From assembly GCA_023443725.1 (NCBI GenBank), contig JAEZTF010000007.1, forward strand, positions 2,391-66,390: a stretch of 64,000 nucleotides of DNA, in the 5' to 3' direction. The translations under genes and the position numbers were made by a program. Below are positions 1-19,278 of this stretch, one piece after another. How positions within the stretch are numbered: the first letter of the stretch is position 1; every line of letters begins with the position of its first letter. Below the pieces are notes generated by a model. That model ran no database searches, was not told where the DNA came from, and worked only from the letters and a program-made list of their open reading frames with translations. This DNA comes from Candidatus Parcubacteria bacterium. GTDB lineage: Bacteria > Patescibacteriota > Microgenomatia > UBA12405.

Positions 1-18
1 CTAGCTATTAACTAATTG

Positions 19-432
19 CTAATTAACTTCTTTTGAAAAAAACTTATTAACTTTTATATTTTTTCCATCGGCCCAATTAACCGTTATTATTGCTGTAACA
101 CATTCATTAATATCACAACCATTACCGTTATATTCACTATAACCGACATCGTAAGAATAACCAGAAAAATTAGGTAAAGTTTCTCCAGTTTTAATATTTT
201 TTTCCCAAAAATAAGTACTATTATTTTTCTTTTGGTCAATTAAATCTTCCATCACTATTTCAGCCATTTCCATAGCTTTTTTTCGATCAAAAGTACGACT
301 TTTAACTCCAATAGAATTAGCTATTAAAACTACTGCCCCTGTAATCACCAACGCTACAACTGTAATAGCAAATACCATTTCCACCATACTTTGTCCTTTT
401 TGATTTTTTTTAATTACAATTATTTTTTTCAT
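19..432 (-). CDS. Pilin-like protein with atypical prepilin leader (KG|QSMVE followed by a hydrophobic helix)
   Basis: The N-terminus MKKIIVIKKNQKGQSMVEMVFAITVVALVITGAV has Gly at -1 and Glu at +5 relative to a putative PilD cleavage site, then a hydrophobic segment. It is the last member of the pilin gene array, but lacks the canonical GFTLxE motif. Confidence 0.45.
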   Translation of the reverse strand: MKKIIVIKKNQKGQSMVEMVFAITVVALVITGAVVLIANSIGVKSRTFDRKKAMEMAEIVMEDLIDQKKNNSTYFWEKNIKTGETLPNFSGYSYDVGYSEYNGNGCDINECVTAIITVNWADGKNIKVNKFFSKEVN

Positions 433-910
433 AGATCAAACCAGTAGTTTCTATATAAATATATTTTTTATCGTCAGTATCATTATCTAAAGACAAAGAA
501 AGACACAATGGGGTACTAGTCAAAATGCCATTTCCATCAGTTAAACGGCCATTTTCTATCGAAAATCCAAACGAATTATTAGTTGTTATCGCTTTGTTAT
601 TTTTAACAAAATAAGGTTGTGCGCCACTATCAATAGTTACTGCATCCGTTCTCAAACTGGTTCCAACTGTCATTGTAACTAAAACAAATTTCAATGAATC
701 ATTAATACCATTTGGTAACTGATTAGTTAACGCCATGCTTCTAGACAAATTTAAACTATTAATCATTTCGTTTTTTAAACTATCCAGTTCTTGACTATTA
801 TTTAATTTATTTAAAGCAGCGGCTCCTATACCAGTTAAAATTATCATTACCGCCACTACCACCATTAATTCCACTAGAGTAAAGCCAAAAATATTTTTTA
901 TTTTTTTCAT
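410..910 (-). CDS. Type IV prepilin-type pseudopilin (GspG/ComGC-like)
   Basis: N-terminal GFTLVELMVVVAVMIIL matches the class III signal G|FTLxE plus a hydrophobic helix. It sits in a tandem array with the other pilins. Confidence 0.75.
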   Translation of the reverse strand: MKKIKNIFGFTLVELMVVVAVMIILTGIGAAALNKLNNSQELDSLKNEMINSLNLSRSMALTNQLPNGINDSLKFVLVTMTVGTSLRTDAVTIDSGAQPYFVKNNKAITTNNSFGFSIENGRLTDGNGILTSTPLCLSLSLDNDTDDKKYIYIETTGLIYEKNNCN

Positions 911-1314
911 TAAGGGTTAACCACTTTATAATTACAACTTCCACCTCCACAACTAAATGAGCTATTGTTAGTTGATCCTAAATCTTCCATGCTCGCTCCA
1001 ATTTGATAGGTATAATTTGTACCCGTATAAGGATAAGTCGATCCAGTTTTTGGATCCTTTGGAATTTGTGGTAATAAACTACTACCAATTAGAGAATTGC
1101 TAAAATTACTAGTTGACGGATAAGTTGATCCAATCTGTTTTAAAGACTCCAAAGCAATTCTCATTTTTTCTAAATCAGCCATTCTTCTAGAATCTCTAGC
1201 TTTTTTAGTCATTCCTCCAAAACTAACCACCGCCACTGCTGTCAATACGGCAATAATTGAAATTGTTACTAATAATTCAAAAAGAGTAAATCCATCTGTC
1301 CTTTTTTCTTTCAT
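910..1314 (-). CDS. Type IV prepilin-type pseudopilin (GspG-like)
   Basis: DGFTLFELLVTISIIAVL leader, followed by the RDSRRMADLEKMRIALE GspG-like helix motif. Confidence 0.75.
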   Translation of the reverse strand: MKEKRTDGFTLFELLVTISIIAVLTAVAVVSFGGMTKKARDSRRMADLEKMRIALESLKQIGSTYPSTSNFSNSLIGSSLLPQIPKDPKTGSTYPYTGTNYTYQIGASMEDLGSTNNSSFSCGGGSCNYKVVNP

Positions 1315-1389
1315 AATTAATTCTATCCTTTTTTTAAATAAATTTCCCCTTTTTCACTAAAAGGAGATACCTGAAGGAAAGGGAATTTC

Positions 1390-1827
1390 TTATTGTTGAT
1401 TTTTAACACAAAAATAATTAGTTATATTCACAAAATCACTACAATCTATAGCCGAATTAGCATTTTTTGAATCTTCCATTAAAGCACAAATACAATAATT
1501 CGAACTACTAAGGGTATTTGCCGTATAAACATAACTACCAGTATTTTTAGGATCAACTGGAAACTTAGCTAAAATCATTTGATTGTCCGGACCAGTCCAT
1601 CCAACATTAATCAAAGTTGGGTATTCATTGTTCAACAAATGATATTGTTCTGCTGCCGATTGAACCGATTTTAAGTCATTAATTCTACGTTGATCTCGAC
1701 CATTTTTTTGAGCTTTAGAAAAACTTAATGAAGCCAAAACAGTTAATATCGCAATTATAGAAATTGAAACTAATAATTCAATCAAAGTAAAACCTGTCTG
1801 CCAGCAGGCACAGCCATTTTTTTTCAT
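1390..1827 (-). CDS. Type IV prepilin-type pseudopilin
   Basis: TGFTLIELLVSISIIAIL leader, followed by RDQRRINDLKSV. The leader is longer than usual (MKKNGCACWQ). Confidence 0.7.
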   Translation of the reverse strand: MKKNGCACWQTGFTLIELLVSISIIAILTVLASLSFSKAQKNGRDQRRINDLKSVQSAAEQYHLLNNEYPTLINVGWTGPDNQMILAKFPVDPKNTGSYVYTANTLSSSNYCICALMEDSKNANSAIDCSDFVNITNYFCVKNQQ

Positions 1828-2378
1828 AACAAGTCGTCTCCTATTTTAATATTTGAACTACTAACTCCATAAACACACCCATTACTAACAGAATAATCAT
1901 CAACATCAGTTAGACAACTGCTGTCGTTCGTATTTTCTAAATTAGCAAACAATTTAAAAGATTTTCCTGTTGTACCACTAATATAACTATAACCTTGAAC
2001 ACTATTTGTAGTTTCTGTTGGTATTTCCACCATATAAGTTACAACTTTGCCACCAACACTTGCCGAAAAACCCACTCCCGCCATTGTTAAATCTAAATTA
2101 GTAGATCCATATGGAAAACTTCCAACATCATTGTAATACATGTTTAAAGCTTTAGAAATTGAATTTAAATCATTTTTTCTTCTGACATCTCTTGATTTTG
2201 TTTGTGCCGTCCTAAAAGAAGAAATTGCTACTACCGTCAACACACTCATGATTGAAATTACCACCAACAGTTCTACTAAAGTAAACCCTTTTTGTTTTAA
2301 GATTGCTCCCTTTTTTAAGGGGAGCTGTTTCGATTTTAATCGAAACTGAGGGGTTTGTTCATTAAATTTATTTTTCAT
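1824..2378 (-). CDS. Type IV prepilin-type pseudopilin with a long (~30 aa) leader
   Basis: KGFTLVELLVVISIMSVL is preceded by a 30-residue basic leader. It is followed by SRDVRRKNDLNSISKALNMYYND, a GspG-like motif. The true start may be internal or non-ATG. Confidence 0.7.
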   Translation of the reverse strand: MKNKFNEQTPQFRLKSKQLPLKKGAILKQKGFTLVELLVVISIMSVLTVVAISSFRTAQTKSRDVRRKNDLNSISKALNMYYNDVGSFPYGSTNLDLTMAGVGFSASVGGKVVTYMVEIPTETTNSVQGYSYISGTTGKSFKLFANLENTNDSSCLTDVDDYSVSNGCVYGVSSSNIKIGDDLL

Positions 2379-2380
2379 TT

Positions 2381-2797
2381 TTAATTAGTACACACAGCAT
2401 AGACACCTGGTGTGGGAGTTAAATTACAATTAATTTGAGACTCGTTTGAATTATTAGAACCACTTTCCAAAGGTACTGTTAATATAAATCCATCACCACT
2501 ATCTAATTGACTATAAGTATAGCCAATACTAGATATATTTGGTAAATAACTAGAACCTATAGCAGTATTTAAACAATCGAAGCAATTAGTTCCTGTTGGA
2601 TAAGATTGATTGTCGTTATAATACATTCTCAAGGCATTTTTAATCGAATTAAGATCTTGAACTTTTTTGGAATCATTGGCTTTTTCTCTAGTTCCTACAA
2701 AATTTACCATCAACAAAGTTGTTAATATTCCTATAATCGAAATCACCACTAACAATTCCACCAATGTAAATCCTTTATTTAATTTACTTTTTTTCAT
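2381..2797 (-). CDS. Type IV prepilin-type pseudopilin (GspG-like)
   Basis: KGFTLVELLVVISIIGIL leader, followed by NDSKKVQDLNSIKNALRMYYND. Confidence 0.75.
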   Translation of the reverse strand: MKKSKLNKGFTLVELLVVISIIGILTTLLMVNFVGTREKANDSKKVQDLNSIKNALRMYYNDNQSYPTGTNCFDCLNTAIGSSYLPNISSIGYTYSQLDSGDGFILTVPLESGSNNSNESQINCNLTPTPGVYAVCTN

Positions 2798-2808
2798 TTT
2801 TTATTTTA

Positions 2809-3231
2809 CTAATTACTAACAACTGCTGATATTTTGTTTTCATAGCAATATTTTTTACCATCACAATCAAAAGATTTATCAAAGCAATCAACATCCTTTT
2901 TATTTTCTAAATTAGTCAATAAAGCAAAAGTTTGTTTATCATATTGTTTATAACAATATTGATTATCAATATAATTTTCCTTAGGAACTTGTTTCATATA
3001 AATATAATCTCCATCTTTCCATTCTTTTCCCCATAAACCATTGATCAACTTTTCTTCAGGCAACTTTCCATAATCAGCATAGTATAATCTTATAACTTTT
3101 GATAATTCATGCAAACTTGATTTTCTTTCTACATCTCTTGATTTTTTTTCCGCCAAATCAAATTGGCTCCAAGTAATCCAACTCAAAACGAAAACTACTA
3201 ATACTACAATAAAAAATTCTACTTTCTTCAT
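2809..3231 (-). CDS. Pilin-domain paralog lacking the prepilin cleavage motif (hydrophobic N-terminus only)
   Basis: It has the shared post-helix motif SRDVERKSSLHELSKVIRLYYADYG that matches neighbouring pilins. The N-terminus MKKVEFFIVVLVVFVLSWITW has no G-F-T-L-x-E. Confidence 0.45.
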   Translation of the reverse strand: MKKVEFFIVVLVVFVLSWITWSQFDLAEKKSRDVERKSSLHELSKVIRLYYADYGKLPEEKLINGLWGKEWKDGDYIYMKQVPKENYIDNQYCYKQYDKQTFALLTNLENKKDVDCFDKSFDCDGKKYCYENKISAVVSN

Positions 3232-3309
3232 TAGTTAATGATAATACTTTTTTAACCTAATTACAGCCAGCACCACAATAATCTATCCTAAATTATTACA
3301 AACTTAATT

Positions 3310-3789
3310 TTATATATCTGTATTCCAAGAAATATTAGAGCTAGAAACTCCATAATTAACTTCATTAATATTATAACCATCAATTTCATAAGAAACATCG
3401 TGGTTATACCAACCAGAAGGAATAGATCCATCTTTTTTGTTTTCCAAATTAGTCAAAACTTTAAAATATTTCCCATTATCACTCACCCAAATATAGTAAG
3501 GATTACCATTAGGATCACATGGCCAGGGATTTAAGTATGAATTAAAAATAGAACTTTTACAATTTGTTTTTATATTCCAATTTCCAATATCAATTGGATA
3601 AACTCCTTTGTCATTAAAATATTCTTCAAAAGATTTTCTAATTGCATCCAAATCTCTTTTTCTTCGAGAGTCATTTGTTTTTCCAAGTAAACCAGCTGGA
3701 TTAATGATTCCTACTAAAATAACAATTAAAATCATCAAGATAGCCATCACTATCAACAATTCCATCAAAGTAAAACCTTTATTTTTCAT
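3310..3789 (-). CDS. Type IV prepilin-type pseudopilin
   Basis: NKGFTLMELLIVMAILMIL leader, followed by NDSRRKRDLDAIRKSFEEYFND. The start is placed at the internal ATG (MKNKGFTL) rather than the ORF-track start at 3828. Confidence 0.7.
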   Translation of the reverse strand: MKNKGFTLMELLIVMAILMILIVILVGIINPAGLLGKTNDSRRKRDLDAIRKSFEEYFNDKGVYPIDIGNWNIKTNCKSSIFNSYLNPWPCDPNGNPYYIWVSDNGKYFKVLTNLENKKDGSIPSGWYNHDVSYEIDGYNINEVNYGVSSSNISWNTDI

Positions 3790-3832
3790 AATTAATTTTA
3801 CCTTTTTTCTAAGATCTAACATCAACAATCTA

Positions 3833-4609
3833 TCATCTTATCAAATTAATAATTTGATCACCCCAAATCCAAGCTATTATTGTCCCAAAAATTAAAAATG
3901 GACCAAAAGCAATTTTACTTTTCTTGTTAATTTTTTTTAAAATCATACCAACTACTCCCACAAGTGCTCCGATTATAAAAGCTATATATATAGCCACCAA
4001 TATCTTAGGCCAACCAAGAAACAATCCCATAAAAACAGCTAACTTTACATCACCAAAACCCATTCCTTTTTTTTTAGTAATCAAATATAAAAACAAAAAA
4101 AAGCCACCAGAAATTATTGCTGAAATCAAATAGGGAATTATATTTGGTTCATCAAAAACAACTCCCAAAAAAGAAATAATTATAAGAGTTGCTACCGCAA
4201 AATCCGGCAAAATCATATATTTGAAATCAAATACAGCTAAAAAAACCAACAAAACAATTATTAAAAATCCTGATACTAATTGTAAGGGCGACTCTTGTGG
4301 TCGCCCAAAAAAATAATAAATCAAAAATAAAATTCCTGTCATTATTTCCACAATAGGGTAGAGTGTTGATAATTTTTTAAGACAACATCTTGATTTTCCT
4401 CCTTGTAATAACCAAGAAATTATCGGAACATTTTCATACCAAGATAATTGTTTTCCACAGAAATCACAGTGACTTCTATTGTTATTTTTTACTTTGAATT
4501 TATCTTTTTCCAATTTATATTTCCTAGCTACTCTATAAACTAACATGTTTACAAAACTTCCAAGACACAAACCCAATATAAAAATCATTGTTAATATAAA
4601 CAATTCCAT
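3833..4609 (-). CDS. pilD: Prepilin peptidase (A24 family, PilD/ComC)
   Basis: N-terminal zinc-binding cysteine motif CDFCGKQL...SRCC. It is a multi-TM protein with GFGDVKL, an aspartyl-protease-like motif. It lies between the pilin genes. Confidence 0.85.
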   Translation of the reverse strand: MELFILTMIFILGLCLGSFVNMLVYRVARKYKLEKDKFKVKNNNRSHCDFCGKQLSWYENVPIISWLLQGGKSRCCLKKLSTLYPIVEIMTGILFLIYYFFGRPQESPLQLVSGFLIIVLLVFLAVFDFKYMILPDFAVATLIIISFLGVVFDEPNIIPYLISAIISGGFFLFLYLITKKKGMGFGDVKLAVFMGLFLGWPKILVAIYIAFIIGALVGVVGMILKKINKKSKIAFGPFLIFGTIIAWIWGDQIINLIR

Positions 4610-4620
4610 AAACTAATTCT

Positions 4621-4647
4621 AACAAAAACCCCTCTTTAAAAGAGGGG
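4621..4647 (-). terminator. Rho-independent terminator downstream of the major pilin gene
   Basis: On the minus strand the stem is CCCCTCT..AGAGGGG with a 5-nt loop, followed by TTTTTGTT. It lies between pilA and pilD. Confidence 0.5.
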
Positions 4648-4670
4648 TTCAAAATCAAATCAAAAATATT

Positions 4671-5327
4671 TTATTGTGGTACACATCTAAATAAACTAAC
4701 ATTGTCTGTAACAGTAGCATACGTCGCATCTATAATTTGTTGATCCGTCGCGTCTACAATTGTCGTTGGTAAACCATTAGTTATAGTCAAAGCCTTAAGT
4801 TTAAAACCAGCTGTATTAGTTCTATTAACTTTAGCTTTTGGTACAAAACAAACATAGATATTATTACCAGCAGTAGAGGATTGCTTAATCAAGAAAAGAG
4901 TATTCTCTGGTTTGTAGTTAGCACCTATAATGGTATATTCCTTATTTAAGAAAGATGATTTCAATTCATCTGAGGTAACCAAAGCACCAGGCGTAGTTGA
5001 TGTTGTACATAAATCATTTTTAGTTGTAGCACTAGCATTGGTACATAAACCAAATCCTGCTTCATTAGCCTTACTAAAAAAAGCAGCATCCACTGTATCA
5101 GTCTCATCGTCCATCAAATCTAGCCAAGGATATGAATTTTTACTAGCATAATATCTCTCATAAGCTGATAGAACTTCAGCAGCATCATTTTGGACTTTTG
5201 CATCTCTTGCTTTATTAGTCTGTTCTATAGGATTAATAGTTGCCAATACTGCCACCGACAAAATAGCTATCAAAGCAATAACGATCAACAACTCTACTAA
5301 AGTAAAACCATTTTTATTCATTTTCAT
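4671..5327 (-). CDS. pilA: Major type IV pilin candidate (PilA-like)
   Basis: NGFTLVELLIVIALIAIL leader. Its position between pilC and the terminator is typical of a major pilin. At 218 aa it is the largest pilin in the locus. Confidence 0.7.
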   Translation of the reverse strand: MKMNKNGFTLVELLIVIALIAILSVAVLATINPIEQTNKARDAKVQNDAAEVLSAYERYYASKNSYPWLDLMDDETDTVDAAFFSKANEAGFGLCTNASATTKNDLCTTSTTPGALVTSDELKSSFLNKEYTIIGANYKPENTLFLIKQSSTAGNNIYVCFVPKAKVNRTNTAGFKLKALTITNGLPTTIVDATDQQIIDATYATVTDNVSLFRCVPQ

Positions 5328-5369
5328 TTTTTCAATAAAATTTTAATATCTAACATTCATTATTTACTA

Positions 5370-6581
5370 CTAAAATTGGGATGTCAAGTTGTAGATAGGC
5401 ATTACTACCGCCACCATCAAAAAAGCTACCCCTAAACCCAATACAATCATTATTAAAGGTTCAATTGCAGAAGTTAAAGATTTTACTGATTGTTCAGCCT
5501 CTGTAGCAAAATAATCTGCCACCCTTAACAAAACTTCATCTAATTTTCCTGTGGCTTCTCCGGTTGCCACCATTTGATTAACCACTACAGGGAAAATACC
5601 AGTTTCTTCAAATGAATTAGCAATTGAAAAACCTTTTTGAACTCTTTCAGCAATTTGTAAATAAGCCCGATTAAAAACTTCATTTCCTGATACATTAGCC
5701 ACAATTCTTAAAGTATCTACTAAAGGAATTCCAGCAGACAACAACATCGACATAGTTCTAATCGTGCTAGCTAATATGTTTCTTTGGTTTAATATTCCTA
5801 TTATAGGCAATTTTATCTTAAAATCATCTATTTTAAACCTAAATTTGTCATTTTTATATCCAATTTTAAATAACAAAAATCCTCCTCCAACTAATACTGG
5901 AATAAAAATCCAAAATTTAGTCATAAAATTAGACATCGACATCATTATCTTTGTTGCTGCTGGCATATCAGCTCCAAAATCTCCATATAAACCAAGCAAT
6001 TTCGGAATTACAAATACCATCATTATTACCACCACGACTAACATACCAATAACCACTATAATCGGATAAATCATTGCCCCTTTTACTTTACTTGAAAATT
6101 CATTTTGTTTTTCTAAAGTATCAGCTAATTTTGATAATATTTCTTCTAATACACCACCTTCTTCTCCGGCATCAATAGAAGCAATATATGCTTCACCAAA
6201 AATCTTCTTATATTTATTCAAACCATCAGCCAACGATTGTCCTCCTTGTACAGCAGTTAAAACATGATCAAGTATTTCAAACATTAAACTATTTTTAGTC
6301 GCTTGATTTTTTAATAAATTTAAAGCGTCAGTTAGGGCCAATCCTGAATTCATCATAGTCGATAATTGTCGTGTCAAATTTGACACTTGTTTTACTCCGA
6401 CTTTAGAAAATAAATTTCGAGATATTCCTCCAAGCAATGTCTGACTTTCTTCATTTACAGATAGAGGAATTAGACCACCCTCTCTAATAGATTCAATAAC
6501 TGCTGATTTTTCAGGTAAATCTACTACTCCTTTGATCAATTTTCCATTCCAGTCTTTAGCTCTATAAACAAATCTCGTCAT
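5370..6581 (-). CDS. pilC: Type IV pilus assembly platform protein PilC (GspF family)
   Basis: About 400 aa with two GspF repeats and three TM segments, and pattern matches to PilC/GspF (e.g. the LLxAGIPLVD-like segment). Confidence 0.9.
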   Translation of the reverse strand: MTRFVYRAKDWNGKLIKGVVDLPEKSAVIESIREGGLIPLSVNEESQTLLGGISRNLFSKVGVKQVSNLTRQLSTMMNSGLALTDALNLLKNQATKNSLMFEILDHVLTAVQGGQSLADGLNKYKKIFGEAYIASIDAGEEGGVLEEILSKLADTLEKQNEFSSKVKGAMIYPIIVVIGMLVVVVIMMVFVIPKLLGLYGDFGADMPAATKIMMSMSNFMTKFWIFIPVLVGGGFLLFKIGYKNDKFRFKIDDFKIKLPIIGILNQRNILASTIRTMSMLLSAGIPLVDTLRIVANVSGNEVFNRAYLQIAERVQKGFSIANSFEETGIFPVVVNQMVATGEATGKLDEVLLRVADYFATEAEQSVKSLTSAIEPLIMIVLGLGVAFLMVAVVMPIYNLTSQF

Positions 6582-7648
6582 AATATTTTTTTATTTCTTA
6601 ACCTATTATTAAAATCCAACGGATTTGAAGAAAAATTAACTGCTACCTCTTGAGAAATTTTTCCTTCTAAAACTAATTTTGCTAAATAACTATCCAAACT
6701 AACCATTCCAGCCTCTGCACTAGTTTGAATAATATTATCTATCATAAAAGTTTTACCCTCACGAATAATATTCTTAACGGCCGAATTACTCATTAATATC
6801 TCAAGTGCCGGAATCATTCCACCACCAAGTGCTGGCACTAATCTTTGTGATACTACTGCTGTTATTACCGAAGATAATTGAATTTTAATCTGTTCTTTGG
6901 CTCCCGACGGGAATACATCGATGATTCTATCAATTGTTTGAGCCGCAGAGTTGGTATGTAACACTGAAAAAACTAAATGACCAGTTTCAGCAATTGTCAA
7001 AGCCGACTGAATTGACTCTAAATCTCTCATTTCACCAATAAAAACCACATTTGGATCTTGTCTTAAACAAGATCTCAAAGCTCGACTAAAATCACCAGTA
7101 TCATTACCCAATTCTCTTTGAGAAATAATTGATTTATTAGATTTAATTATATATTCCACCGGATCTTCAATTGTCACAATATGACTATTTCTTGTCTTAT
7201 TTATTTCATCCAAAATTGCTGCCACGGTAGTTGATTTACCATGACCAGTCGGACCAGTAACCAAAACAAATCCTTGCTTTAAATTTGCAAAGTTTCTCAA
7301 TAGATTTGGCAACTGTAATTCTTCAAAAGAGGGAATTCTAGATGCAATTAACCTCAATGAGCAGGCTAAACTATCTTGTTGGTAATAAATATTAGCCCTA
7401 AAACGAGACTCATCAGTTTCAAAAGAAAAATCTATTTCTTTTAAAGAAGTCAATTCAGCTTTTTTCTTTTCATCAAGCAAAGATTCAATCATTTCTTTTA
7501 TTAAAGAATCTTCCATTTGAGTCATATTTGGAGCATTAACCAATTCTCCGTTTAATCTAAATTTAGGTACTACTCCTTTCATTAAGTGAACATCCGAAGT
7601 TTTATTAGCTACTGCCAGTTTTAAAATTTCTTGTAATTTTGTATGCAT
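6578..7648 (-). CDS. pilT: Twitching motility ATPase PilT
   Basis: 356 aa with Walker A GPTGHGKSTT, plus the Asp box and His box, and the PilT signature AIRNLIREGK-like motif (NIIREGK). Confidence 0.85.
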   Translation of the reverse strand: MHTKLQEILKLAVANKTSDVHLMKGVVPKFRLNGELVNAPNMTQMEDSLIKEMIESLLDEKKKAELTSLKEIDFSFETDESRFRANIYYQQDSLACSLRLIASRIPSFEELQLPNLLRNFANLKQGFVLVTGPTGHGKSTTVAAILDEINKTRNSHIVTIEDPVEYIIKSNKSIISQRELGNDTGDFSRALRSCLRQDPNVVFIGEMRDLESIQSALTIAETGHLVFSVLHTNSAAQTIDRIIDVFPSGAKEQIKIQLSSVITAVVSQRLVPALGGGMIPALEILMSNSAVKNIIREGKTFMIDNIIQTSAEAGMVSLDSYLAKLVLEGKISQEVAVNFSSNPLDFNNRLRNKKIL

Positions 7649-7689
7649 TTTATTTTTTGTTTTACTATTTACTACTAACTAATTACTAA

Positions 7690-9429
7690 TTAATATTGGG
7701 CCACTCTAATAACTTCATCAATAGTGGTCACTCCTTCTAATACCTTAACGTAACCATCTTGCTTCATTGTTAACATTCCTTCTTCCATAGCTTGTTTTTG
7801 TATATCCAAAGCAGCTGCTTTTTCAATAATTAATTTACTAATTTTTTCTGATATTGGCATTACCTCATATATAGCTATTCTTCCTAAATAACCAGTATTA
7901 TTACATTTTTCACAGCCTACAATTTTAGGAATAGTCATAGCCTTACCATCTTTTTTAAATTTATCTTCTAACAAATTATAAACAGGCCCTAAAGTTTTTT
8001 TCATATCATCCATTATTTGTGGCGTCATTTCCATTTCTCCAGCACAGTTTTTGCAAACTCTTCTCAAAACTCTCTGTCCAACCACACAATTTAATGAAGA
8101 CACTAATAAAAATGGTTCTGCTCCCATATCTAATAATCTTGGAGGGACTCCAGAAGCATCATTAGTATGTAAAGTTGAAAAAACTAAATGACCAGTCAAA
8201 GCCGCATTAATAGCCAAATCGGCCGTCTCAGTATCACGAATTTCTCCAACCATTATTACATTTGGATCTTGTCGTAAAAATGATCTTAATGCCGAAGCAA
8301 AAGTTAACCCTGCTTGAGTGTTAACTTGCACCTGGTTTACCCCTTTCATTTGATATTCTACTGGATCTTCAATTGTTACTACATTAACCTTTGTTGTTGC
8401 CACAATATCCAAAATAGAATATAAAGTAGTTGTCTTACCAGAACCAGTTGGTCCACAAACAATAATAATTCCATGTGGTCTTTGAATTGAATTCATTAGG
8501 TTCTTCAATGCTAATCCTCGTAAACCCAAGTCTGGCAATGTTGGTACTTTTTGTGATTTTTGAAGCAAACGCATTACCACTTTCTCTCCATAAGTAGTTG
8601 GTAAAGTAGAAACACGTAAATCCACATCACTCCCATCAACAGAAAAAAAGAAACGACCATCTTGAGGCACGCGCTTCTCATCAATTTTTAAGTTTGACAA
8701 AATTTTTATTCTAGAAACCACGGCATCATGGACATTTCTTGGAAGTAAATATTTTTCCTGTAAAATTCCATCAATTCTATATCTTACTCGAACATTTTCT
8801 TCTTGTGGTTCAACATGTACATCAGAAGCTCTAGACTTAACTGCATACTCCAAAATAGTTGATACAATTTTAGCCACTGGTGCTTCAATAGCAACTTCTT
8901 CTTGAACTCTCTTCATCTCCCGTTCTTCATCTTTTCTTTCATTCAATGCTTTGTTTACCTCAGAAGTAATTTTTTTCTCTCTAATATATTTTTCCCTAAC
9001 AAAGGCAGAAATTTGTTTTTCTGTCGACATCGATACATTTATCTTTAAATTAGTTCTTTTTTCTAAAAATTCTATTGTCTCTAAATCAAGTGGGTTAGCC
9101 ATGGTCACAAACAAAATTTTTTCTTTAGGATCAAAACGATAGGGGACTATATTATACTTTTGAGCCACACTTTCGGGTACTAAATTTAAAGCTTCTGGAG
9201 AAAAACCAATATTATCTAAATCCACAAAAGGAACTCTCAAAAAACTTGCTTTTGCTTTTATTAATTCATCTTCTGATACTAACTTTAATTCTTTTATTGC
9301 TTCTTCTTCTGTTTCACCAGTCTTAAGTTGTCGTAAGTTTATTTCTTTAGATTGATCAGAATTGATTAGTTTTAAACCTAACAAAGCTTCAGTTAAGTTC
9401 TTATATATTTTTGGGGCGGCATTATCCAT
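7690..9429 (-). CDS. pilB: Type IV pilus assembly ATPase PilB (GspE family)
   Basis: 579 aa with Walker A GPTGSGKTTT, a tetracysteine zinc motif (CKNC...CEKC) and an N-terminal GspII-like domain. Confidence 0.9.
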   Translation of the reverse strand: MDNAAPKIYKNLTEALLGLKLINSDQSKEINLRQLKTGETEEEAIKELKLVSEDELIKAKASFLRVPFVDLDNIGFSPEALNLVPESVAQKYNIVPYRFDPKEKILFVTMANPLDLETIEFLEKRTNLKINVSMSTEKQISAFVREKYIREKKITSEVNKALNERKDEEREMKRVQEEVAIEAPVAKIVSTILEYAVKSRASDVHVEPQEENVRVRYRIDGILQEKYLLPRNVHDAVVSRIKILSNLKIDEKRVPQDGRFFFSVDGSDVDLRVSTLPTTYGEKVVMRLLQKSQKVPTLPDLGLRGLALKNLMNSIQRPHGIIIVCGPTGSGKTTTLYSILDIVATTKVNVVTIEDPVEYQMKGVNQVQVNTQAGLTFASALRSFLRQDPNVIMVGEIRDTETADLAINAALTGHLVFSTLHTNDASGVPPRLLDMGAEPFLLVSSLNCVVGQRVLRRVCKNCAGEMEMTPQIMDDMKKTLGPVYNLLEDKFKKDGKAMTIPKIVGCEKCNNTGYLGRIAIYEVMPISEKISKLIIEKAAALDIQKQAMEEGMLTMKQDGYVKVLEGVTTIDEVIRVAQY

Positions 9430-9456
9430 AATTGTATATATAATAATAGTACCAAA

Positions 9457-10098
9457 ATGAAATTATTTCCGTCTACTATAATTGTTTCTCGATCAATTGA
9501 TCAATCTATTAATTACACTATTGAAACGTGCCAGTCATTAGGCCATAAATCCATAATAAATAATCCTGATCTTTTTTTGATTAACCAAGAAACAGGTTGG
9601 ACTATTGATCTTGTTCGATCATTAAAAAAATTTATTTCCCAAAAACCATTTTGCCACCAAAACAAAGTCGTTATAATATCTCAAGCCGACAATCTTAATA
9701 TAGAATCACAAAATGCTCTTTTAAAAACCCTTGAAGAACCAGGAGAGAATAACTATATTTTTTTAATTACTGCTAGACCATCAAAATTATTAAATACTAT
9801 AACATCACGATGTCATTTAATAAAAATTACTAATTTGGACAACAAAAAATCTTCAAAAGAGATTATTAAAATAACTGGAAATTTTCTTAAAGACACCTCA
9901 GGGTTAGAAGAACTTTATAAAAATAAGGACCAAATTCTACCTTTTTTAAAAGAACAATTAGCCTTATTACAACAAGACTTAATTAACAAACCAAGTACAA
10001 GAACTAGTCAAATTATTCAAAGAATTATTAAATCAATTAGTATGATTGAATCAAACGTCGACCCACGTTCAGCCTTAGATTTTGTTTTTTTGGCCTAA
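9457..10098 (+). CDS. holB: DNA polymerase III delta-prime subunit (short form)
   Basis: KTLEEPGENNYIFLITARPSKLLNTITSRCHL matches the delta-prime KTLEEP / SRC motifs. Confidence 0.7.
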   Translation: MKLFPSTIIVSRSIDQSINYTIETCQSLGHKSIINNPDLFLINQETGWTIDLVRSLKKFISQKPFCHQNKVVIISQADNLNIESQNALLKTLEEPGENNYIFLITARPSKLLNTITSRCHLIKITNLDNKKSSKEIIKITGNFLKDTSGLEELYKNKDQILPFLKEQLALLQQDLINKPSTRTSQIIQRIIKSISMIESNVDPRSALDFVFLA

Positions 10099-10156: not shown

Positions 10157-11284
10157 ATGTTTTCTCCGTTATTTTCAATCAATAATAAAGTTTTAAAAAA
10201 TATTGCCATCATCGAAGGTGCTAAAGCAATTATCGATGAAGCTCCTTTAATACCTGCTTACGAAAAACAATTTCAACAAGATGCAGTTGTCAGAACGGTC
10301 CATTACGGTACTAGAATTGAAGGTAACGATTTAACTTTTCAAGAAGTTGCCAAACTTGTTGAAGGTCAAAAAATAACTGCTGGAGAAAGGGACATCCAAG
10401 AGGTTATCAACTATCGAAATGTTATGAGTTATTTAGAAGAACTTTGGTCTGTTTATGATGCTGGTCTTCCACTTCCAGAAGAAAAATCAATTGATAGTAG
10501 CGATAAAAGTCGACCTTTCTTTTATAGTGAAACCATAATTAAAAAAATTCATTCTTTCACCACCAATAAAATTATTCCAGATAGTGAAGTTGGCAAATAT
10601 CGTCATCAACAAGTAGTTTTAAAAAACACTAAAACCGGCGAGATTGCCCATCGACCTCCAGCCGCAATTGAAGTTCCATATCTTATCGCTGATTTTATTG
10701 ATTGGATTAATTATCCTGAATCTCGCGAAATTCACCCAGCCATTCGTGCTGCTATCTCACAATATATTTTAGTTGCCATTCATCCTTTTATTGAAGGTAA
10801 TGGTCGTGTTAGTCGAGCTTTTGCCATGTTACCTCTTTATTCAGAAGGTTATGATATTCGTCGTTTATTTTCTCTAGAAGAATATTTTGATCGAAATGCC
10901 GAAGATTACTACAATACCCTTCAATTAACTCACCAAAAATCATCTGATATTTTCAAACGAGATATGACCGAATGGATCGAATATTTTACTCAAGCATTAG
11001 CTATTGAACTTTCTCGTGTTAAAGAAAAAGTTCAAAGTCTTTCTCGAGATATTAAACTCAAACAGAAACTTGGTGGTAAACAAGTTCATTTAAGCGAACG
11101 ACAAATTAAACTAGTCGAATATATGCAACAATTTGGTGGATTAAGAATGCCTGATGCTCAACAACTTTTACCCATGGTTAGTGATGACACTATCTGGCGA
11201 GATCTCAAAAAATTAGTTGACGATAAAGTTATCGAAAAACGTGGTTCCACCAAAGGTGCCTACTATTGTCTTGTAAATATCTAA
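10157..11284 (+). CDS. Fic family protein (Fido domain, putative AMPylator) with a C-terminal winged-helix
   Basis: Canonical Fic motif HPFIEGNGRVSRAF. N-terminal TRIEGN resembles the inhibitory (S/T)xxxE(G/N) helix. The C-terminal ~70 aa are wHTH-like. Confidence 0.85.
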   Translation: MFSPLFSINNKVLKNIAIIEGAKAIIDEAPLIPAYEKQFQQDAVVRTVHYGTRIEGNDLTFQEVAKLVEGQKITAGERDIQEVINYRNVMSYLEELWSVYDAGLPLPEEKSIDSSDKSRPFFYSETIIKKIHSFTTNKIIPDSEVGKYRHQQVVLKNTKTGEIAHRPPAAIEVPYLIADFIDWINYPESREIHPAIRAAISQYILVAIHPFIEGNGRVSRAFAMLPLYSEGYDIRRLFSLEEYFDRNAEDYYNTLQLTHQKSSDIFKRDMTEWIEYFTQALAIELSRVKEKVQSLSRDIKLKQKLGGKQVHLSERQIKLVEYMQQFGGLRMPDAQQLLPMVSDDTIWRDLKKLVDDKVIEKRGSTKGAYYCLVNI

Positions 11285-11299
11285 ACAAAAAAATACAAT

Positions 11300-11731
11300 T
11301 TGTTAATGCGTCGGTCAAATCTAAAAAATACCTTTATATTTGTTGTTTTTATTATTATTTCTTATTTAATTACATTCTATTGTTTAGCTCATCCAGATAT
11401 TATTTTTAGTTCTATCAGCCTTACTCTTTTTAACTCTCTTTCCAGTCTTATTTTTATTTATCTTTTTAATCACCAAAATTATTTTCCTGCAATTAAAAAT
11501 ATTGAACTATCTAATCAGAAAAAACAAAAAAAATATCTTAAAAAATTCCTTAAATTCGGTAAATTTATTGCCACAATTTTAACGGGTTTAATCGGCGGAC
11601 CAATTTTACTTTCTCTAAGCGTTAAACTTTTATTTCGACAACATCAATATCGATACACTATTATCGCTAGTATCTTAACTAATATAGTTTTTATCATTAT
11701 ATCCAAGGGTCTTCTCCAAATAATTTTCTAG
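11300..11731 (+). CDS. Hypothetical small membrane protein
   Basis: Three or four predicted TM helices and no recognisable motif. Confidence 0.35.
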   Translation: MLMRRSNLKNTFIFVVFIIISYLITFYCLAHPDIIFSSISLTLFNSLSSLIFIYLFNHQNYFPAIKNIELSNQKKQKKYLKKFLKFGKFIATILTGLIGGPILLSLSVKLLFRQHQYRYTIIASILTNIVFIIISKGLLQIIF

Positions 11732-11754
11732 CCTAAGTAAGCTATAATCAACTT

Positions 11755-13704
11755 ATGATCACCCTTGATTCTCCTGAATTAAAAAATATTTCTCCTGAAA
11801 AACTTGGTGAGCTATTAATTGAAGCCAAAAAAGCTTATTTCACTACCGATAAACCAATCATGGATGATCACACTTTTGATGTTTTAGAAGATATTCTTCG
11901 TCAAAAACTGCCATATCATCGAATCTTTACTAAAGCCGGCACAACAAAATTTGTCACCGGATTTGATAAAAAAAAGCATCAAATTTCTATGGGATCTCAA
12001 AATAAAGTCAACACTTTTGACGATTTAGTTCATTATTTTGAATTAAAAAGTGCTGCCGCAGGCAACGTTGATATGCGAAGCATATCTTACGTTGTCCAAC
12101 CAAAATGTGATGGTATTTCTTTAGAGATAGAGTATCAAGATGGAAAACTTGTCGATGCCGTCACTAGAGGAGACGGTAAAACAGGTGATGTAATTACTCA
12201 AAATGTCGTCAAAATGAAAAATTTTGTAATGAATATGCCAAAGGATTTTTCTGGGTCAATTCGTTGCGAGATTGTTATGTTAAATAAAGATTTTGAAAAG
12301 TTAAATCAAATTTCTACCGAGAAATATTCCAATTCTCGCAATGCCACTTCCGGTATTTCTCAAAGATTAGACGGTCAATATTCAGAATATTGTAGTCTTT
12401 ACGCTACAGATCTACTTTTTTCAAATCAATTAATCGAAAAAGAGTCTGAAAAAATAGATTTTCTAAATAAAAATGGTTTTGTCGGTGTTGAAAGTTTTCA
12501 TTGTTCTACTTTTGATGAAATAGAAAATATTTACCAAAAATTTTTATTTAAAAATAGACAAGATTATCCATTTGAAATAGACGGTTTAGTTGTAAAAATA
12601 GAAGACTTAAAAATTCAAACTCAATTAGGAATCAAAAATAATCGCCCTAAAGGTCAAGTTGCTTACAAATTTCCAGCACGTTCAAGTCAAACCAGAATCA
12701 ACAAAATTGATTGGCAAGTCGGACCAATGGGAACAATTACTCCTGTAGCCCAAGTTGACCCCATCGAAGTTTCTGGAGCTGTTATTACATATGCCTCTTT
12801 AGCTAATTACGATTTAATCAAAGAAAAAGACATTAATATTGATGACATAGTCGAGATTCAAAGAAGGGGAGATGTCATTCCTCATATTGAAAAGGTTATT
12901 ACCAAAATAAATTCTGGCCATGTTTTGGCCCCAACTCATTGTCCTTCATGTAAAACACCATTAGTTATCGATAATAAATTCATTCGTTGTCCTAATATCT
13001 CCAAATGCCCTGATCAAATTTTAGGGTCACTAAGACTTTTTTGTGACACTTTAGAAATAAAAGGTATTTCCGATAAAACCATTGCCAAGCTTTATCAATT
13101 AAATTTAATTAAACTACCTGGTGATTTTTATAATCTCAAAGTAACTGATTTTGAAAATATTGCTGGTTTAGGAAACAAATCTGGCAACAATATTGTTAAT
13201 GAAATTCAAGCTAAAAAAAATCTAACTCTTAAACAAGTCTTAGATGCTGCTATTATTCCTAACTTTAGTTCTCAAAGAATTATTCAAATCATCAATGCCG
13301 GTTTTGATACCCCAAAAAAACTTCTAAATATTACTATAGAACAACTTGAAAGTTTACCCGGTGTTCAAATTACTTTAGCCAAAAAAATCTATCAAGGTAT
13401 TCAAGACAGAAAAGATTTTATTGAATCAATATTAAAAAATATTACCTTAAAGTTAACGATTGGTAATCAGAAATCTATCATATCAGGGTTATCATTTGCT
13501 ATTACTGGAGATCTTTCTGTCCCTCGAAAAGTTTTGGAAGAAAAAATAATTTCTCTTGGGGGAAAACTATCTTCATCAGTAACTTCAAATACTGATTATT
13601 TGATTACCAACGAATTAGAGTCTAGTTCAAGCAAATTCAAAAATGCCAAAAAATTCGGCACAAAAATAATTACAGAAGATGAGTTTAATCATTTAGCAGA
13701 ATAA
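11755..13704 (+). CDS. ligA: NAD-dependent DNA ligase
   Basis: KxDG adenylation motif (KCDGIS), an OB fold, a Zn finger (CPSC...C..C), HhH repeats and a C-terminal BRCT-like segment. 649 aa. Confidence 0.9.
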   Translation: MITLDSPELKNISPEKLGELLIEAKKAYFTTDKPIMDDHTFDVLEDILRQKLPYHRIFTKAGTTKFVTGFDKKKHQISMGSQNKVNTFDDLVHYFELKSAAAGNVDMRSISYVVQPKCDGISLEIEYQDGKLVDAVTRGDGKTGDVITQNVVKMKNFVMNMPKDFSGSIRCEIVMLNKDFEKLNQISTEKYSNSRNATSGISQRLDGQYSEYCSLYATDLLFSNQLIEKESEKIDFLNKNGFVGVESFHCSTFDEIENIYQKFLFKNRQDYPFEIDGLVVKIEDLKIQTQLGIKNNRPKGQVAYKFPARSSQTRINKIDWQVGPMGTITPVAQVDPIEVSGAVITYASLANYDLIKEKDINIDDIVEIQRRGDVIPHIEKVITKINSGHVLAPTHCPSCKTPLVIDNKFIRCPNISKCPDQILGSLRLFCDTLEIKGISDKTIAKLYQLNLIKLPGDFYNLKVTDFENIAGLGNKSGNNIVNEIQAKKNLTLKQVLDAAIIPNFSSQRIIQIINAGFDTPKKLLNITIEQLESLPGVQITLAKKIYQGIQDRKDFIESILKNITLKLTIGNQKSIISGLSFAITGDLSVPRKVLEEKIISLGGKLSSSVTSNTDYLITNELESSSSKFKNAKKFGTKIITEDEFNHLAE

Positions 13705-13760
13705 CAAATCGACTGCTAACTGAACTATCAAAAATTATTTTCCCTATCTTTAGGTATATT

Positions 13761-13786
13761 TATATATCAATATATATTGATATATA
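13761..13786. promoter_or_regulatory. 26-bp perfect palindrome TATATATCAATAT|ATATTGATATATA upstream of pth
   Basis: Read directly from the sequence. It sits in the 120-bp ligA-pth intergenic region and is a candidate operator or promoter element. Confidence 0.3.
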
Positions 13787-13823
13787 TCAAATACTATCTA
13801 TGTCTCAATGATAAAATACTTTT

Positions 13824-14378
13824 ATGAAACTCATTTTTGGTTTAGGTAATCCAGATTCAAAATATAAAAACACTCGTCATAACCTTGGGCAGAAAATTAT
13901 TAAAGAATTCGTACTTAAGACATATAATCAAAAATTAAGCGTCAAAAAAAATCTTGATTCTGAAACTTTTGAAACAGGTGCAGACCTGCCTGCCGGCAGA
14001 CAGGGGAGTCAAAAAATAATTTTTGCTATTTCAACAGGTTTCATGAATAATTCAGGTATTCCAGTTAAAAAAATATCTCAATTTTATAAAATTAATCCAT
14101 CTGATATCTATATTCTCCACGACGATCTTGATTTAGGAGTAGGGGATTACCGTATTCAATTTGATCGAGGTCCAGCTGGTCATAATGGGATTAAATCAAT
14201 TATTGAAAATTTTGGTACTCAACAATTTAATCGTATTCGTATCGGTATTGGTAAGCCTCAAAATAATATTCCAGTAGAAGACTATGTTTTAGAACCTTTT
14301 TCAAAAGAAGAATCGAATATAATAAACTCTCTTACTTCAAAAATTTTTGAAGAAATTAAAAATATTATCAATTCATAA
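13824..14378 (+). CDS. pth: Peptidyl-tRNA hydrolase
   Basis: N-terminal LIFGLGNPDSKYKNTRHNLG and the catalytic His and Asp context (HDDLDL) match Pth. Confidence 0.85.
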   Translation: MKLIFGLGNPDSKYKNTRHNLGQKIIKEFVLKTYNQKLSVKKNLDSETFETGADLPAGRQGSQKIIFAISTGFMNNSGIPVKKISQFYKINPSDIYILHDDLDLGVGDYRIQFDRGPAGHNGIKSIIENFGTQQFNRIRIGIGKPQNNIPVEDYVLEPFSKEESNIINSLTSKIFEEIKNIINS

Positions 14379-14379
14379 A

Positions 14380-14450
14380 GGGCTCATAGTTAAACGGTAT
14401 AACGCGTCATTCGCATTGACGTATTCTGGGTCCAATTCCCAGTGGGTCCA
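14380..14450 (+). tRNA. tRNA-Ala (anticodon CGC) candidate
   Basis: Manual fold: acceptor GGGCTCA/TGGGTCC with the G3:U70 wobble that is the tRNA-Ala identity element; D-stem GTTA/TAAC; anticodon stem CGTCA/TGACG; loop TTCGCAT (U33, anticodon CGC, A37). The T-loop TCCAATT is atypical. No encoded CCA. Confidence 0.5.
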
Positions 14451-14455
14451 CTATC

Positions 14456-15997
14456 ATGATTAAAATAATTAAATCAGTTACAAAATCAATTGCTCACAGT
14501 GTTAAACACGACCCAGAAATCACTCGAATAAAAAACAAATATCCAAAAACCTTTAAGTTTATATCTCGTAGATTTACTAAACATCATAAATATGGACTTT
14601 ATCTAACAATTGGTGTTGCTCTAACCATTTTTTTTGCTAGTATTTTTATAAAAATTCTCAAAAATTACTTTAGTCATGCCAAATTAATTCAATTCGATCT
14701 CCGTGTTATCAATCTCTTTAGTACTTTTAGATATGAAAAATTAAATCATCAAGCTCTATTTGTTACTTATCTAGCCAAAGGTGAAATTATTGCAGTTGGA
14801 GTTATTGTTATTAGTTTGATTTTGATTTTAATTAAACAATGGCGTTTTTTAAAAGTCTTATTAATTTCTGTTTTAGGTGGAGAATTATTTGTTTGGATTA
14901 TTAAAAATTTAATTGATCGTCCCCGTCCACCTTTAGTCAGTGCTTTAGTTAATGAAACTACTTATAGTTTTCCTAGTGGGCATACTTTTGTGGCTATCGC
15001 TTTTTATGGACTCTTGGGATATTTGATTATCCAATCAGAAAGAAATAAATTTCTCAAAATCATTAGTCTAGTTTTCATATCCTTCTTAATTGTTTCTATT
15101 GGCTTATCTCGAATTTATTTAGGAGCTCATTGGCCATCAGACGTTCTAGCTAGTTTTGTTTCTGGAGCCGCTTGGTTAAGTATTTTAATTACTTGGTTAA
15201 AAATAAAAAATAAATTTATTCCCTTACCAAAACCAGAAAATCAATTTAAAAAAATAACTATTATTATTTCCAGTTTTTTATTGTTCTTAATCTGGATAAT
15301 TTTTATTATTGGTTTTTATTTTACTCATCCGCTTCAATCCAAATCAGAGATTATAGAAACTAAAACAATTATTGAAACCAAAAATATTCCTCAGCAGCTA
15401 TTTCAAAACCTTCCCAAAGTTAGTGAATCGATTAGTGGTATTGCTGCCGAACCAATAAATATGGTTTTTGTTGGAACAAAAGAAACTATTAATGACGCTT
15501 TCATTAAATCTGGTTGGTATCTCTTAGATGGACCCAGTTTAAAATCTTATTCCAAAATAATAACTTCATTATTGTTTGACCAGGCCTATCCAACTACACC
15601 AGGTTTACCAGTTTTTTGGGATACTCAACCCAGTCAATTTGCTTATGGTAAACCAACTACCCCAAAATCAATTAGTTCTCGAGAACATATTCATTTTTGG
15701 GAAACCGATTTTGTTACCCAAGATTATCAAAACATTTGGGTAGGTACTGCTCATTTTGACCAACAAATTAATAAAAAATTAGGTATGGTTATGCCTTTTC
15801 ACACTACTGAAACAAAAGTTGATATTCAAAGAGAAAACATCAAAAATGAATTAGAAAAAAATGGATTTATTCAAAAGACAGAAAAAATTGATTTAACTGG
15901 ATTATCTTATGGTATTAAAAAAGGGAGTGGTAATAGTTTTCTTACCGATGGTCAAGCCTACATTATATTCATTAAAAATAATAATGAGAAAAGATAG
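14456..15997 (+). CDS. PAP2-family lipid phosphatase fused to a C-terminal LssY_C-like domain
   Basis: Membrane N-terminal half with the PAP2 motifs KX6RP-like, PSGH (FPSGHT) and SRIYLGAHWPSD. The ~250 aa soluble C-terminal domain is of the type commonly fused to PAP2. Confidence 0.7.
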   Translation: MIKIIKSVTKSIAHSVKHDPEITRIKNKYPKTFKFISRRFTKHHKYGLYLTIGVALTIFFASIFIKILKNYFSHAKLIQFDLRVINLFSTFRYEKLNHQALFVTYLAKGEIIAVGVIVISLILILIKQWRFLKVLLISVLGGELFVWIIKNLIDRPRPPLVSALVNETTYSFPSGHTFVAIAFYGLLGYLIIQSERNKFLKIISLVFISFLIVSIGLSRIYLGAHWPSDVLASFVSGAAWLSILITWLKIKNKFIPLPKPENQFKKITIIISSFLLFLIWIIFIIGFYFTHPLQSKSEIIETKTIIETKNIPQQLFQNLPKVSESISGIAAEPINMVFVGTKETINDAFIKSGWYLLDGPSLKSYSKIITSLLFDQAYPTTPGLPVFWDTQPSQFAYGKPTTPKSISSREHIHFWETDFVTQDYQNIWVGTAHFDQQINKKLGMVMPFHTTETKVDIQRENIKNELEKNGFIQKTEKIDLTGLSYGIKKGSGNSFLTDGQAYIIFIKNNNEKR

Positions 15998-16277: not shown

Positions 16278-16292
16278 TATAATAAAGAGTTT

Positions 16293-19261: not shown

Positions 19262-19278
19262 TCTGATATTATTAATTA

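Follow-up and report, generated by a model that had tools for sequence, protein, structure and literature searches.

Candidate phyla radiation (CPR, or Patescibacteria) bacteria are already known to make type IV pili (T4P) with many pilins. In CPR genomes, the genes for pilins, PilB and PilT, PilC, PilM/N/O, and PilD are enriched and colocalized, while PilQ is absent (PMC6744442). The saccharibacterium Nanosynbacter lyticus TM7x has two T4P systems; its four loci encode 12 predicted pilins, some of them similar to pseudopilins of type II secretion systems (T2SS), and experiments in this organism have demonstrated that T4P take part in host binding and twitching (PMC11623550). Here we describe a pilus locus at one end of a 64,000-nucleotide stretch of contig JAEZTF010000007.1 (assembly GCA_023443725.1, filed under Candidatus Parcubacteria), which we call the window. 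Its genes very probably form a chromosomal type IV filament locus, similar to those for type IVa pili (T4aP), of a single-membrane Candidatus Shapirobacteria bacterium. The locus is a Shapirobacteria version of the CPR pili described so far and differs from them in its ten pilin-like genes, which we number P1 to P10 in their order along the locus, in the absence of pilMNO from the locus, and in a family of proteins represented by P3.

The closest described system, T4P-1 of TM7x, likewise belongs to a monoderm CPR bacterium and combines PilB, PilT, PilC, and PilD with clustered pilins that have PilD signal peptides and lollipop folds, with no secretin (PMC11623550, PMC6744442). In both cases several minor pilins resemble T2SS pseudopilins and the pilins diverge far faster than the machinery, and PilX2 of TM7x has a non-canonical signal peptide, as does one pilin here (PMC11623550). 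In contrast, T4P-1 has pilM/N/O inside the locus and 5 pilins, whereas the locus described here has 10 pilin-like genes, no pilM/N/O, and no large modular tip pilin of the beta-propeller or jelly-roll kind. Its PilB is only 43 to 45% identical to that of loci titled Saccharibacteria. The T4aP of Streptococcus sanguinis and Clostridia resemble this system in their clustered genes, PilT retraction, T4aP-like α1N, bifunctional peptidase, and lack of outer membrane components, but they have PilM/N/O in the cluster, where these are required, and one or two major and about three minor pilins, so that the minor set here is three times larger (PMC6916266). PilM/N/O are specific to T4aP, and S. sanguinis, the only monoderm studied in a systematic way, requires them (PMC6916266).

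The listing of open reading frames (ORFs) shows thirteen consecutive genes on the minus strand between window positions 1 and 12000, with short gaps or overlaps between them. A preliminary description of this DNA had placed pilB, pilT, pilC, a pilin gene, and pilD here, followed by eight small ORFs, and all of these are present, on the minus strand and intact. The gene for the extension ATPase, pilB (7690 to 9429, 579 aa), matches Pfam T2SSE (430.4 bits) and MshEN (51.5 bits), and its translation shows a tetracysteine pair, CKNC...CEKC. The retraction ATPase gene, pilT (6578 to 7648, 356 aa), scores 421.8 bits against NCBIfam TIGR01420 (pilT_fam, the PilT/PilU family; cutoff, 319.1), with a Walker A motif (GPTGHGKST) and an AIRNLIRE-like motif (AVKNIIREGK) in the translation, and this bears out the earlier description of the pilus as retractile. 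The platform protein is encoded by pilC (5370 to 6581, 403 aa; Pfam T2SSF, 203.4 bits in two repeats) and the prepilin peptidase and N-methyltransferase by pilD (3833 to 4609, 258 aa; A24_N_bact, 92.8 bits, and Peptidase_A24, 59.8 bits). The family assignments of PilB, PilT, PilC, and PilD all exceed curated thresholds. The locus brings together a PilB-type ATPase, a PilT-family ATPase, a PilC/GspF platform, a bifunctional PilD, and pilins with class III signals, all of them features of a T4aP. No pilin-like ORF shows the frameshifts that would mark a pseudogene, and their lengths agree with those of orthologs.

PilB is 73 to 82% identical to PilB of Candidatus Shapirobacteria metagenome-assembled genomes (Microgenomates, Patescibacteria/CPR), and the window has a G+C content of about 30%. 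Its first 10.4 kb, as the reverse complement, corresponds over 10,432 bases with one mismatch to scaffold_114 (76.7 kb) of the European Nucleotide Archive assembly ERZ28596294, LEMO22-1. This scaffold (L001 among the related loci, which we number with the prefix L) runs 4.2 kb past the left edge of the window, where it carries P10, a lipoprotein-like gene, and two paralogous genes without a Pfam family. All ORFs of 80 related loci were mapped to the proteins of the window. This recovered the order pilB-pilT-pilC-P1-pilD-P2...P10 one to one in L005, L006, L008, and L009, and the same order without P3 in L010, L011, and L020, the last of which also lacks a detectable P7. More distant Patescibacteria, with PilB about 52% identical, have pilB-pilT-pilC-pilin-pilD followed by three to seven genes with a prepilin motif. 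We rejected an origin in a mobile element or prophage because the locus has the same housekeeping neighbors in relatives as it does here: one gene each of the DNA polymerase III delta and Fic families, an ORF of 645 to 683 aa, and one of 176 to 186 aa. The N termini of the latter two match the 649-aa ORF of the window (11755 to 13704) and pth, respectively.

Eight of the nine pilin-like ORFs in the window reach the Pfam gathering score for N_methyl, P3 being the exception. A six-frame scan for G↓(F/Q)(T/S)(L/M)xE, in which the arrow marks the PilD cleavage site, found eight sites in the 64 kb, all of them at the 5' ends of pilin-like ORFs. Taken together, these results indicate that the pilin array is real and far from a chance pattern. 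Of the nine paralogs counted earlier, eight thus carry a canonical class III signal of the form G↓FTLxE or G↓QSMVE and P3 does not, and a tenth prepilin gene with such a signal, P10 (166 aa, NG↓FTLMEI), lies on scaffold_114 just past window position 1.

All genes of the array are on the minus strand. P2 (3310 to 3828, with the probable start at the ATG at 3789) has the leader MKNKG↓FTLMELL and scores 31.6 bits for N_methyl and 36.4 bits for NCBIfam GspG, below the cutoff; its orthologs at the same ordinal position are 37 to 53% identical. Further GspG-like minor pilins are P4 (2381 to 2797, 138 aa; N_methyl, 32.9 bits; T2SSG, 26.1 bits against a cutoff of 21), P5 (1824 to 2378, 184 aa including a 31-aa leader; N_methyl, 33.9 bits), P6 (1390 to 1827, 145 aa; 28.9 bits), and P7 (910 to 1314, 134 aa; 28.0 bits). 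P6 and P7 are 40% identical to each other, and P7 is the best conserved of the minor pilins (51 to 59% identity among orthologs). In an all-against-all comparison, P2 to P7 were 20 to 44% identical, and most pairs had similarity (E < 1e-3) that reached beyond the helix to the globular part. The T2SSG cutoff is exceeded by P4 alone; P3, P5, and P6 fall below it, and P1, P2, P7, P8, and P9 have no match. Scores for TIGR01710 range from 16 to 58 bits against a cutoff of 88.85, and no pilin is a GspG equivalog. P2 to P7 are therefore GspG-like in fold and motif without being GspG equivalogs.

The last three genes are of other kinds. P8 (410 to 910, 166 aa; N_methyl, 21.8 bits) has a globular part unrelated to those of P2 to P7 and best matches GspH (29.0 bits) and ComGD (25.6 bits) in NCBIfam, both below cutoff. 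P9 (19 to 432, 137 aa; KG↓QSMVEM; N_methyl, 24.9 bits), whose sequence is identical on scaffold_114, is GspI/ComGE/PilV-like; six of eight P9 orthologs match ComGE weakly and one matches PilV. The best matches of P8, P9, and P10 are thus GspH/ComGD, ComGE/PilV, and ComGF/GspJ, all weak and in the canonical H-I-J (or D-E-F) order, and the three proteins are unrelated to P2 to P7 beyond the N-terminal helix. The description of all eight small ORFs as GspG-like consequently holds for P2 to P7 and fails for P8 and P9. The post-helix motif (S/A)RD-x-RR-x-DL...YY, previously reported for the whole set, is exact only in P5 and looser, as RD/RR...DL, in P2, P3, P4, P6, and P7; P1 retains just ARD and YY, and P8 and P9 lack it.

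Each of the ten pilins has 2 or 4 cysteines, and the window encodes a 345-aa thioredoxin/DsbA-like protein (22566 to 23603, plus strand) that may be a disulfide oxidoreductase needed for cysteine-bearing pilins. This combination fits the disulfide machinery that is enriched in CPR genomes and has been reported for CPR pilins (PMC6744442). We also observed that Ala frequently replaces Gly at position −1 of these CPR pilins (KA↓FTLVELL), as in P8 of L006, P1 and P2 of L012, P5 of L020, and about 20 of the 150 best database representatives.

P1 (4671 to 5327, 218 aa) is the best candidate for the major pilin, as the preliminary description had proposed. It has the leader MKMNKNG↓FTLVELL, an N_methyl score of 33.5 bits, and more than 693 homologs in a database search, the nearest of which, beyond a 99% variant, is only 61% identical. 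The N-terminal 40 or so residues of the mature protein are nearly invariant across relatives. A confident AlphaFold model (pLDDT, 87.4) pairs a long N-terminal helix with a distinct globular domain of about 150 aa, and Foldseek returned no significant match for the model in the PDB.

Regulatory signals surround this gene on both sides. A promoter-like site, TTGACA-17-AATAAT (5359 to 5387, minus strand), with 11 of 12 consensus matches, is the best in the region and lies 32 nt upstream of the P1 start; TTGACA-N17-(A/G)ATAAT is conserved before P1 in eight close loci (among them L005 to L009, L011, and L012). The site persists as noncoding DNA in two loci with a shifted pilC end, L005 and L009. 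In the remaining loci the −35 hexamer overlaps conserved codons for the PilC C terminus, and therefore part of the conservation of the site reflects coding constraint and is ambiguous. On the other side, in the gap between P1 and pilD, a terminator- or attenuator-like hairpin (4645 to 4619, minus strand) lies 25 nt past the P1 stop and consists of CCTCTTTTAAAGAGGGG (4645 to 4629) followed by TTTTTG. It folds at −15.9 kcal/mol (z = −3.55) and has the makings of an intrinsic terminator, namely a G+C-rich hairpin with an immediate T-run 3' of a stop codon, and the earlier proposal of a terminator after the major pilin is thus strengthened. A G+C-rich hairpin with a T-run occurs at the same position, with differing stems, in every close relative that could be evaluated (L005 to L009, L011, L012, and L020), and the distant loci L025, L027, L028, L031, L032, and L033 likewise have a hairpin and T-run after P1. 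Because the position is kept while stem sequences differ, a structure appears to be maintained rather than a sequence inherited. These signals suggest that P1 is a separately promoted and terminated unit nested in the operon and that pilD and the minor pilins would receive attenuated read-through past the terminator. They are also the best available argument that P1 is, as seems likely, the major pilin. A weak hairpin in the P6-P7 gap (1345 to 1367, minus strand; −9.7 kcal/mol, z = −2.0, poor T-run) was unconvincing as a second terminator and may have arisen by degeneration from the palindromic element described below.

Several observations weigh against this account of the locus. P1 is the largest pilin of the set rather than the smallest, and major pilins of TM7x have been described as relatively small (PMC11623550). 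The Gly/Ala/Ser/Thr content, which was used as an indicator of major pilins in the same study (PMC11623550), fails to single out P1 (0.35, compared to 0.36 for P5 and 0.38 for P7). The H/I/J-like assignments of P8 to P10 are all below curated cutoffs, and profile searches of the PDB with ortholog alignments of P8, P9, and P10 matched the N-terminal helix only or nothing, giving no classification at the level of the fold. Finally, a Pfam scan of 56 window ORFs, the set to which the window-wide negatives below also refer, found no PilM/N/O.

The missing PilM/N/O genes received further attention. In tblastn searches, PilK/M/N/O of relatives had no match in either the window or the close loci L004 to L020, and a Pfam scan of the three genes downstream of P10 on scaffold_114 detected no PilM/N/O, so that the earlier designation of the locus as complete is unproven. 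In L023, L024, and L028 the array is followed by a GspK-like protein of 268 to 290 aa without Glu5 and then by PilM, PilN, and PilO, and L022, L029, L033, and L051, as far as they were examined, have a GspK-like protein and PilM. The same GspK-like/PilMNO continuation occurs on contigs L085 and L086 (PilM proteins P0203 and P0214), the first of whose PilM proteins is named Candidatus Shapirobacteria at NCBI. We rejected these contigs as a guide to the location of pilMNO in the clade of the window, since their G+C content of 41 to 42%, against about 30%, and their PilD, only 38% identical, place them in a different clade. In the clade of the window the array stops at P10 and is followed by nonconserved secreted or lipoprotein genes that could not be annotated. 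On scaffold_114 (11012 to 14162) these encode a 332-aa lipoprotein-like protein and two paralogs of 413 and 261 aa whose C-terminal parts are identical over about 220 aa. Differing large secreted, membrane, or lipoprotein-like genes without a Pfam family follow P10 in L005, L006, L010, L011, and L020.

A locus without PilMNO could encode a Com-like pilus, as the Firmicutes comG operon does, that imports DNA for an auxotrophic cell. Like comG (ComGA to ComGG), it is a compact set of ATPase, platform, and pilins in which P8, P9, and P10 have their best or near-best matches, weak ones, in ComGD, ComGE, and ComGF, in comG order, and competence components are enriched in CPR bacteria (PMC6744442). 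Several features nevertheless lead us to regard a Com-like pilus as doubtful. The retraction ATPase of the PilT family scores above its cutoff here, whereas Firmicute Com systems are not known to have PilT. The long MshEN-type N terminus of PilB is typical of T4aP and MSHA ATPases. The presumed major pilin has 211 aa in its mature form, compared to about 100 aa in ComGC, and scores for ComGC (16 to 30 bits against a cutoff of 75), like those of all ComG-family matches, fall short of the equivalog cutoff. There are ten pilin genes rather than five, and ComEA, ComEC, and DprA were not found among the scanned ORFs of the window. Moreover, pilMNO are present in more distant relatives that have the same array. 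A T4aP could nevertheless have DNA uptake among its functions.

P3 (2809 to 3231, minus strand, 140 aa) begins with MKKVEFFIVV..., has neither Gly(−1) nor Phe(+1), does not match N_methyl, and scores 18.9 bits for T2SSG, below cutoff. There is no room for a hidden leader, since an in-frame TAA lies upstream of the ATG at a distance of two codons. Mutagenesis of PilA has identified Gly(−1) as the key determinant of cleavage by prepilin peptidase, and therefore P3 is most likely not cleaved by PilD. The trait is shared by its relatives: a database search recovered 59 clusters at 51 to 100% identity, none with an N_methyl match, as well as two more distant canonical prepilins. Across the family the leader can be arranged in a series of erosion (GFTLGE, G(F/L)xxE, KxxxxE, and MKK(V/L)E). 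A profile search of 1.84 billion representatives yielded 22 relatives at E <= 1e-30, and all but two of the 150 best-ranked have a small residue at −1, which indicates that the trait is restricted to a lineage. The alignment of the P3 family has 18 invariant columns, including four Cys and a Glu in the membrane helix. The AlphaFold model of P3 (pLDDT, 89.8) has the lollipop shape of a pilin, and in a Foldseek search with this model pilins and PulG/EpsG ranked at the top, at E values of 0.1 to 1 that are not significant. P3 is the most charged pilin of the set and the least rich in Gly/Ala/Ser/Thr.

One could take P3 for a mere pseudogene, a P5-like pilin copy in decay: its cleavage motif is lost, it is absent from L010, L011, and L020, and P5 is its closest paralog (33% identity, 2e-18). 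Such decay is improbable for an ORF that is intact in all 59 clusters, that has kept its invariant columns and a confident model of the pilin fold, and whose nearest homologs are 76 to 86% identical, closer than the nearest homolog of P1 (61%) is to P1, which argues for purifying selection. Most likely, P3 is a pilin derivative that stays uncleaved and anchored in the membrane and is maintained by purifying selection. We know of no non-processed pilin component of this kind in bacterial type IV filaments. As a long shot, we speculate that low-G+C Shapirobacteria lost a GspK-like pilin and PilM/N/O from the ancestral site after the J-like gene and that part of the clade also fixed P3, with its eroded PilD site, as an uncleaved, signal-anchored subunit with a new structural role. 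P3 might dock beneath the fiber through its conserved helix Glu and there anchor the base or terminate the chain, or it might provide a scaffold that makes up in part for the absent alignment proteins.

The unusually long leader of P5, of 31 aa, results from an in-frame, G+C-rich, double-hairpin palindromic element (about 2296 to 2350, minus strand; −19 kcal/mol, z = −6.2). Such elements measure about 45 to 60 nt and lie in frame just 5' of the G↓FT codons, lengthening leaders to 24 to 37 aa. In L005, L006, and L009, other pilins have related copies in their leader-coding DNA, and copies are also present in intergenic DNA, for example directly 3' of the P1 terminator in L005 to L009; we located them in L005 (about 14885 to 14939 and 15806 to 15855), in L006 (7458 to 7496 and 10460 to 10518), and at nine places in L009. 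A single copy was detected in the 64-kb window. Since PilD removes the leader, insertions of this kind would be tolerated there, and an additional role of the elements may be as RNA structures. The element looks like a repetitive extragenic palindromic sequence or a miniature inverted-repeat transposable element. In-frame palindromic repeats inside ORFs are known from the palindromic elements of Rickettsia. The likeness lies in short G+C-rich palindromes that are found both between genes and in frame within them; the elements here are about 45 to 60 nt long, and, unlike those of Rickettsia, their in-frame copies in the pilus loci all fall within a peptide that is cleaved off. The sole mismatch between the window and scaffold_114 (window position 2291, L001 position 8142) changes the Lys codon two before the G↓FTLVE site of P5 to TAA, and P5 thus has a nonsense allele in assembly ERZ28596294.

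This allele, which segregates between assemblies, bears on a rival reading of the array, akin to the antigenic diversification proposed earlier, in which paralogs would be exchanged or alternately expressed to alter the exposed surface, be it for antigenic or phase variation or to avoid phages. The globular domains of the pilins also diverge faster than the machinery (29 to 59% identity, compared to 77 to 82% for PilB), and the gap between the 99% variant of P1 and its next homolog could be read in the same way. We consider this reading very improbable, and antigenic diversification is not what the comparison with relatives indicates. The best match of each pilin is the protein at the same ordinal position, and one-to-one orthologs hold these positions in several genomes. 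Each paralog is of full length, begins at a start codon of its own, and, P3 excepted, carries its own leader, and the paralogs are mutually only 20 to 44% identical. We saw no silent, 5'-truncated cassettes, although no systematic search of the window for repeats or recombination sites was made, and the palindromic element in the P5 leader is single copy in the window. Orthologs kept one to one at fixed positions point to a division of labor and argue against both recent expansion and antigenic-variation cassettes; by this evidence from sequence comparison, the ten pilin genes are ancient, individually maintained orthologs.

The last alternative, a T2SS-like pseudopilus that pushes proteins out of the cell, is suggested by GspG-like matches of P2 to P7 followed by H-, I-, and J-like genes in the order of gspG-H-I-J-K, to which distant relatives add the GspK-like protein without Glu5, but it is hardly credible for a PilT-bearing locus that lacks a K-like gene throughout the clade and has no pilin at the GspG/H/I/J equivalog cutoff, in a window whose scanned ORFs include no secretin GspD or GspC/L/M and in cells that, like other CPR bacteria, would have neither an outer membrane nor PilQ (PMC6744442).

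We therefore favor a retractile T4aP-like filament that would work as follows. PilD would cut after Gly(−1), thereby removing a short basic leader, and N-methylate Phe(+1) of nine prepilins (P1, P2, and P4 to P10), after which PilC and the PilB ATPase would lift the subunits from the membrane and polymerize them; depolymerization of the fiber by PilT would retract the pilus. P1 would provide the bulk subunit from its own promoter, with most transcripts ending at the terminator directly behind it, while PilD and the minor pilins would be made in small amounts from read-through and from transcription that starts upstream. The H/I/J-like P8 to P10 most likely form the priming and tip complex, and the GspG-like P2 and P4 to P7 would be low-abundance subunits with separate conserved roles. 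P3, not cut by PilD, would probably remain anchored in the membrane. By analogy with Saccharibacteria, we infer that the pilus functions in host attachment or twitching and possibly in DNA uptake.

We also recorded features of the window outside the pilus locus. A Fic-domain protein with a C-terminal DeoR-type helix-turn-helix is encoded at 10157 to 11284 (plus strand), and in L005, L009, and L011 a 377-aa ORF with a nearly identical N terminus lies two genes upstream of pilB. Two cohesin genes (61350 to 62042 and 62029 to 62646) and two dockerin genes (60664 to 61353 and 62676 to 63929) are adjacent to one another on the minus strand, and this group of four (60664 to 63929) suggests a small surface assembly in a CPR genome. 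A 240-aa release-factor homolog (46039 to 46761, plus strand) matches only the distal PCRF domain and RF-1. The gap upstream of it encodes ribosomal protein L31 and not a frameshifted N terminus, which implies a release factor without domain 1. GC skew is −0.2 to −0.44 where genes are on the minus strand (1 to 10000, 30000 to 42000, and 50000 to 64000) and about zero, not positive, in the plus-strand regions (12000 to 30000 and 42000 to 50000), a pattern that suggests superimposed strand biases of replication and transcription. Strand compositional disparity is reported for a Microgenomates genome (PMC7143001).

T4P are thought to be central to host attachment and feeding in CPR/Patescibacteria, with experiments so far in Saccharibacteria only, and the general picture of CPR pili is unchanged by this locus. 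It does raise the questions of whether a monoderm T4aP can work without locus-encoded PilMNO, what role an uncleavable protein of the pilin fold would play, and why palindromes amass in leader-coding DNA. For Microgenomates/Shapirobacteria, the locus provides a conserved blueprint, in which a putative major pilin, apparently promoted and terminated separately, is accompanied by six conserved GspG-like minor pilins and an H/I/J-like trio.

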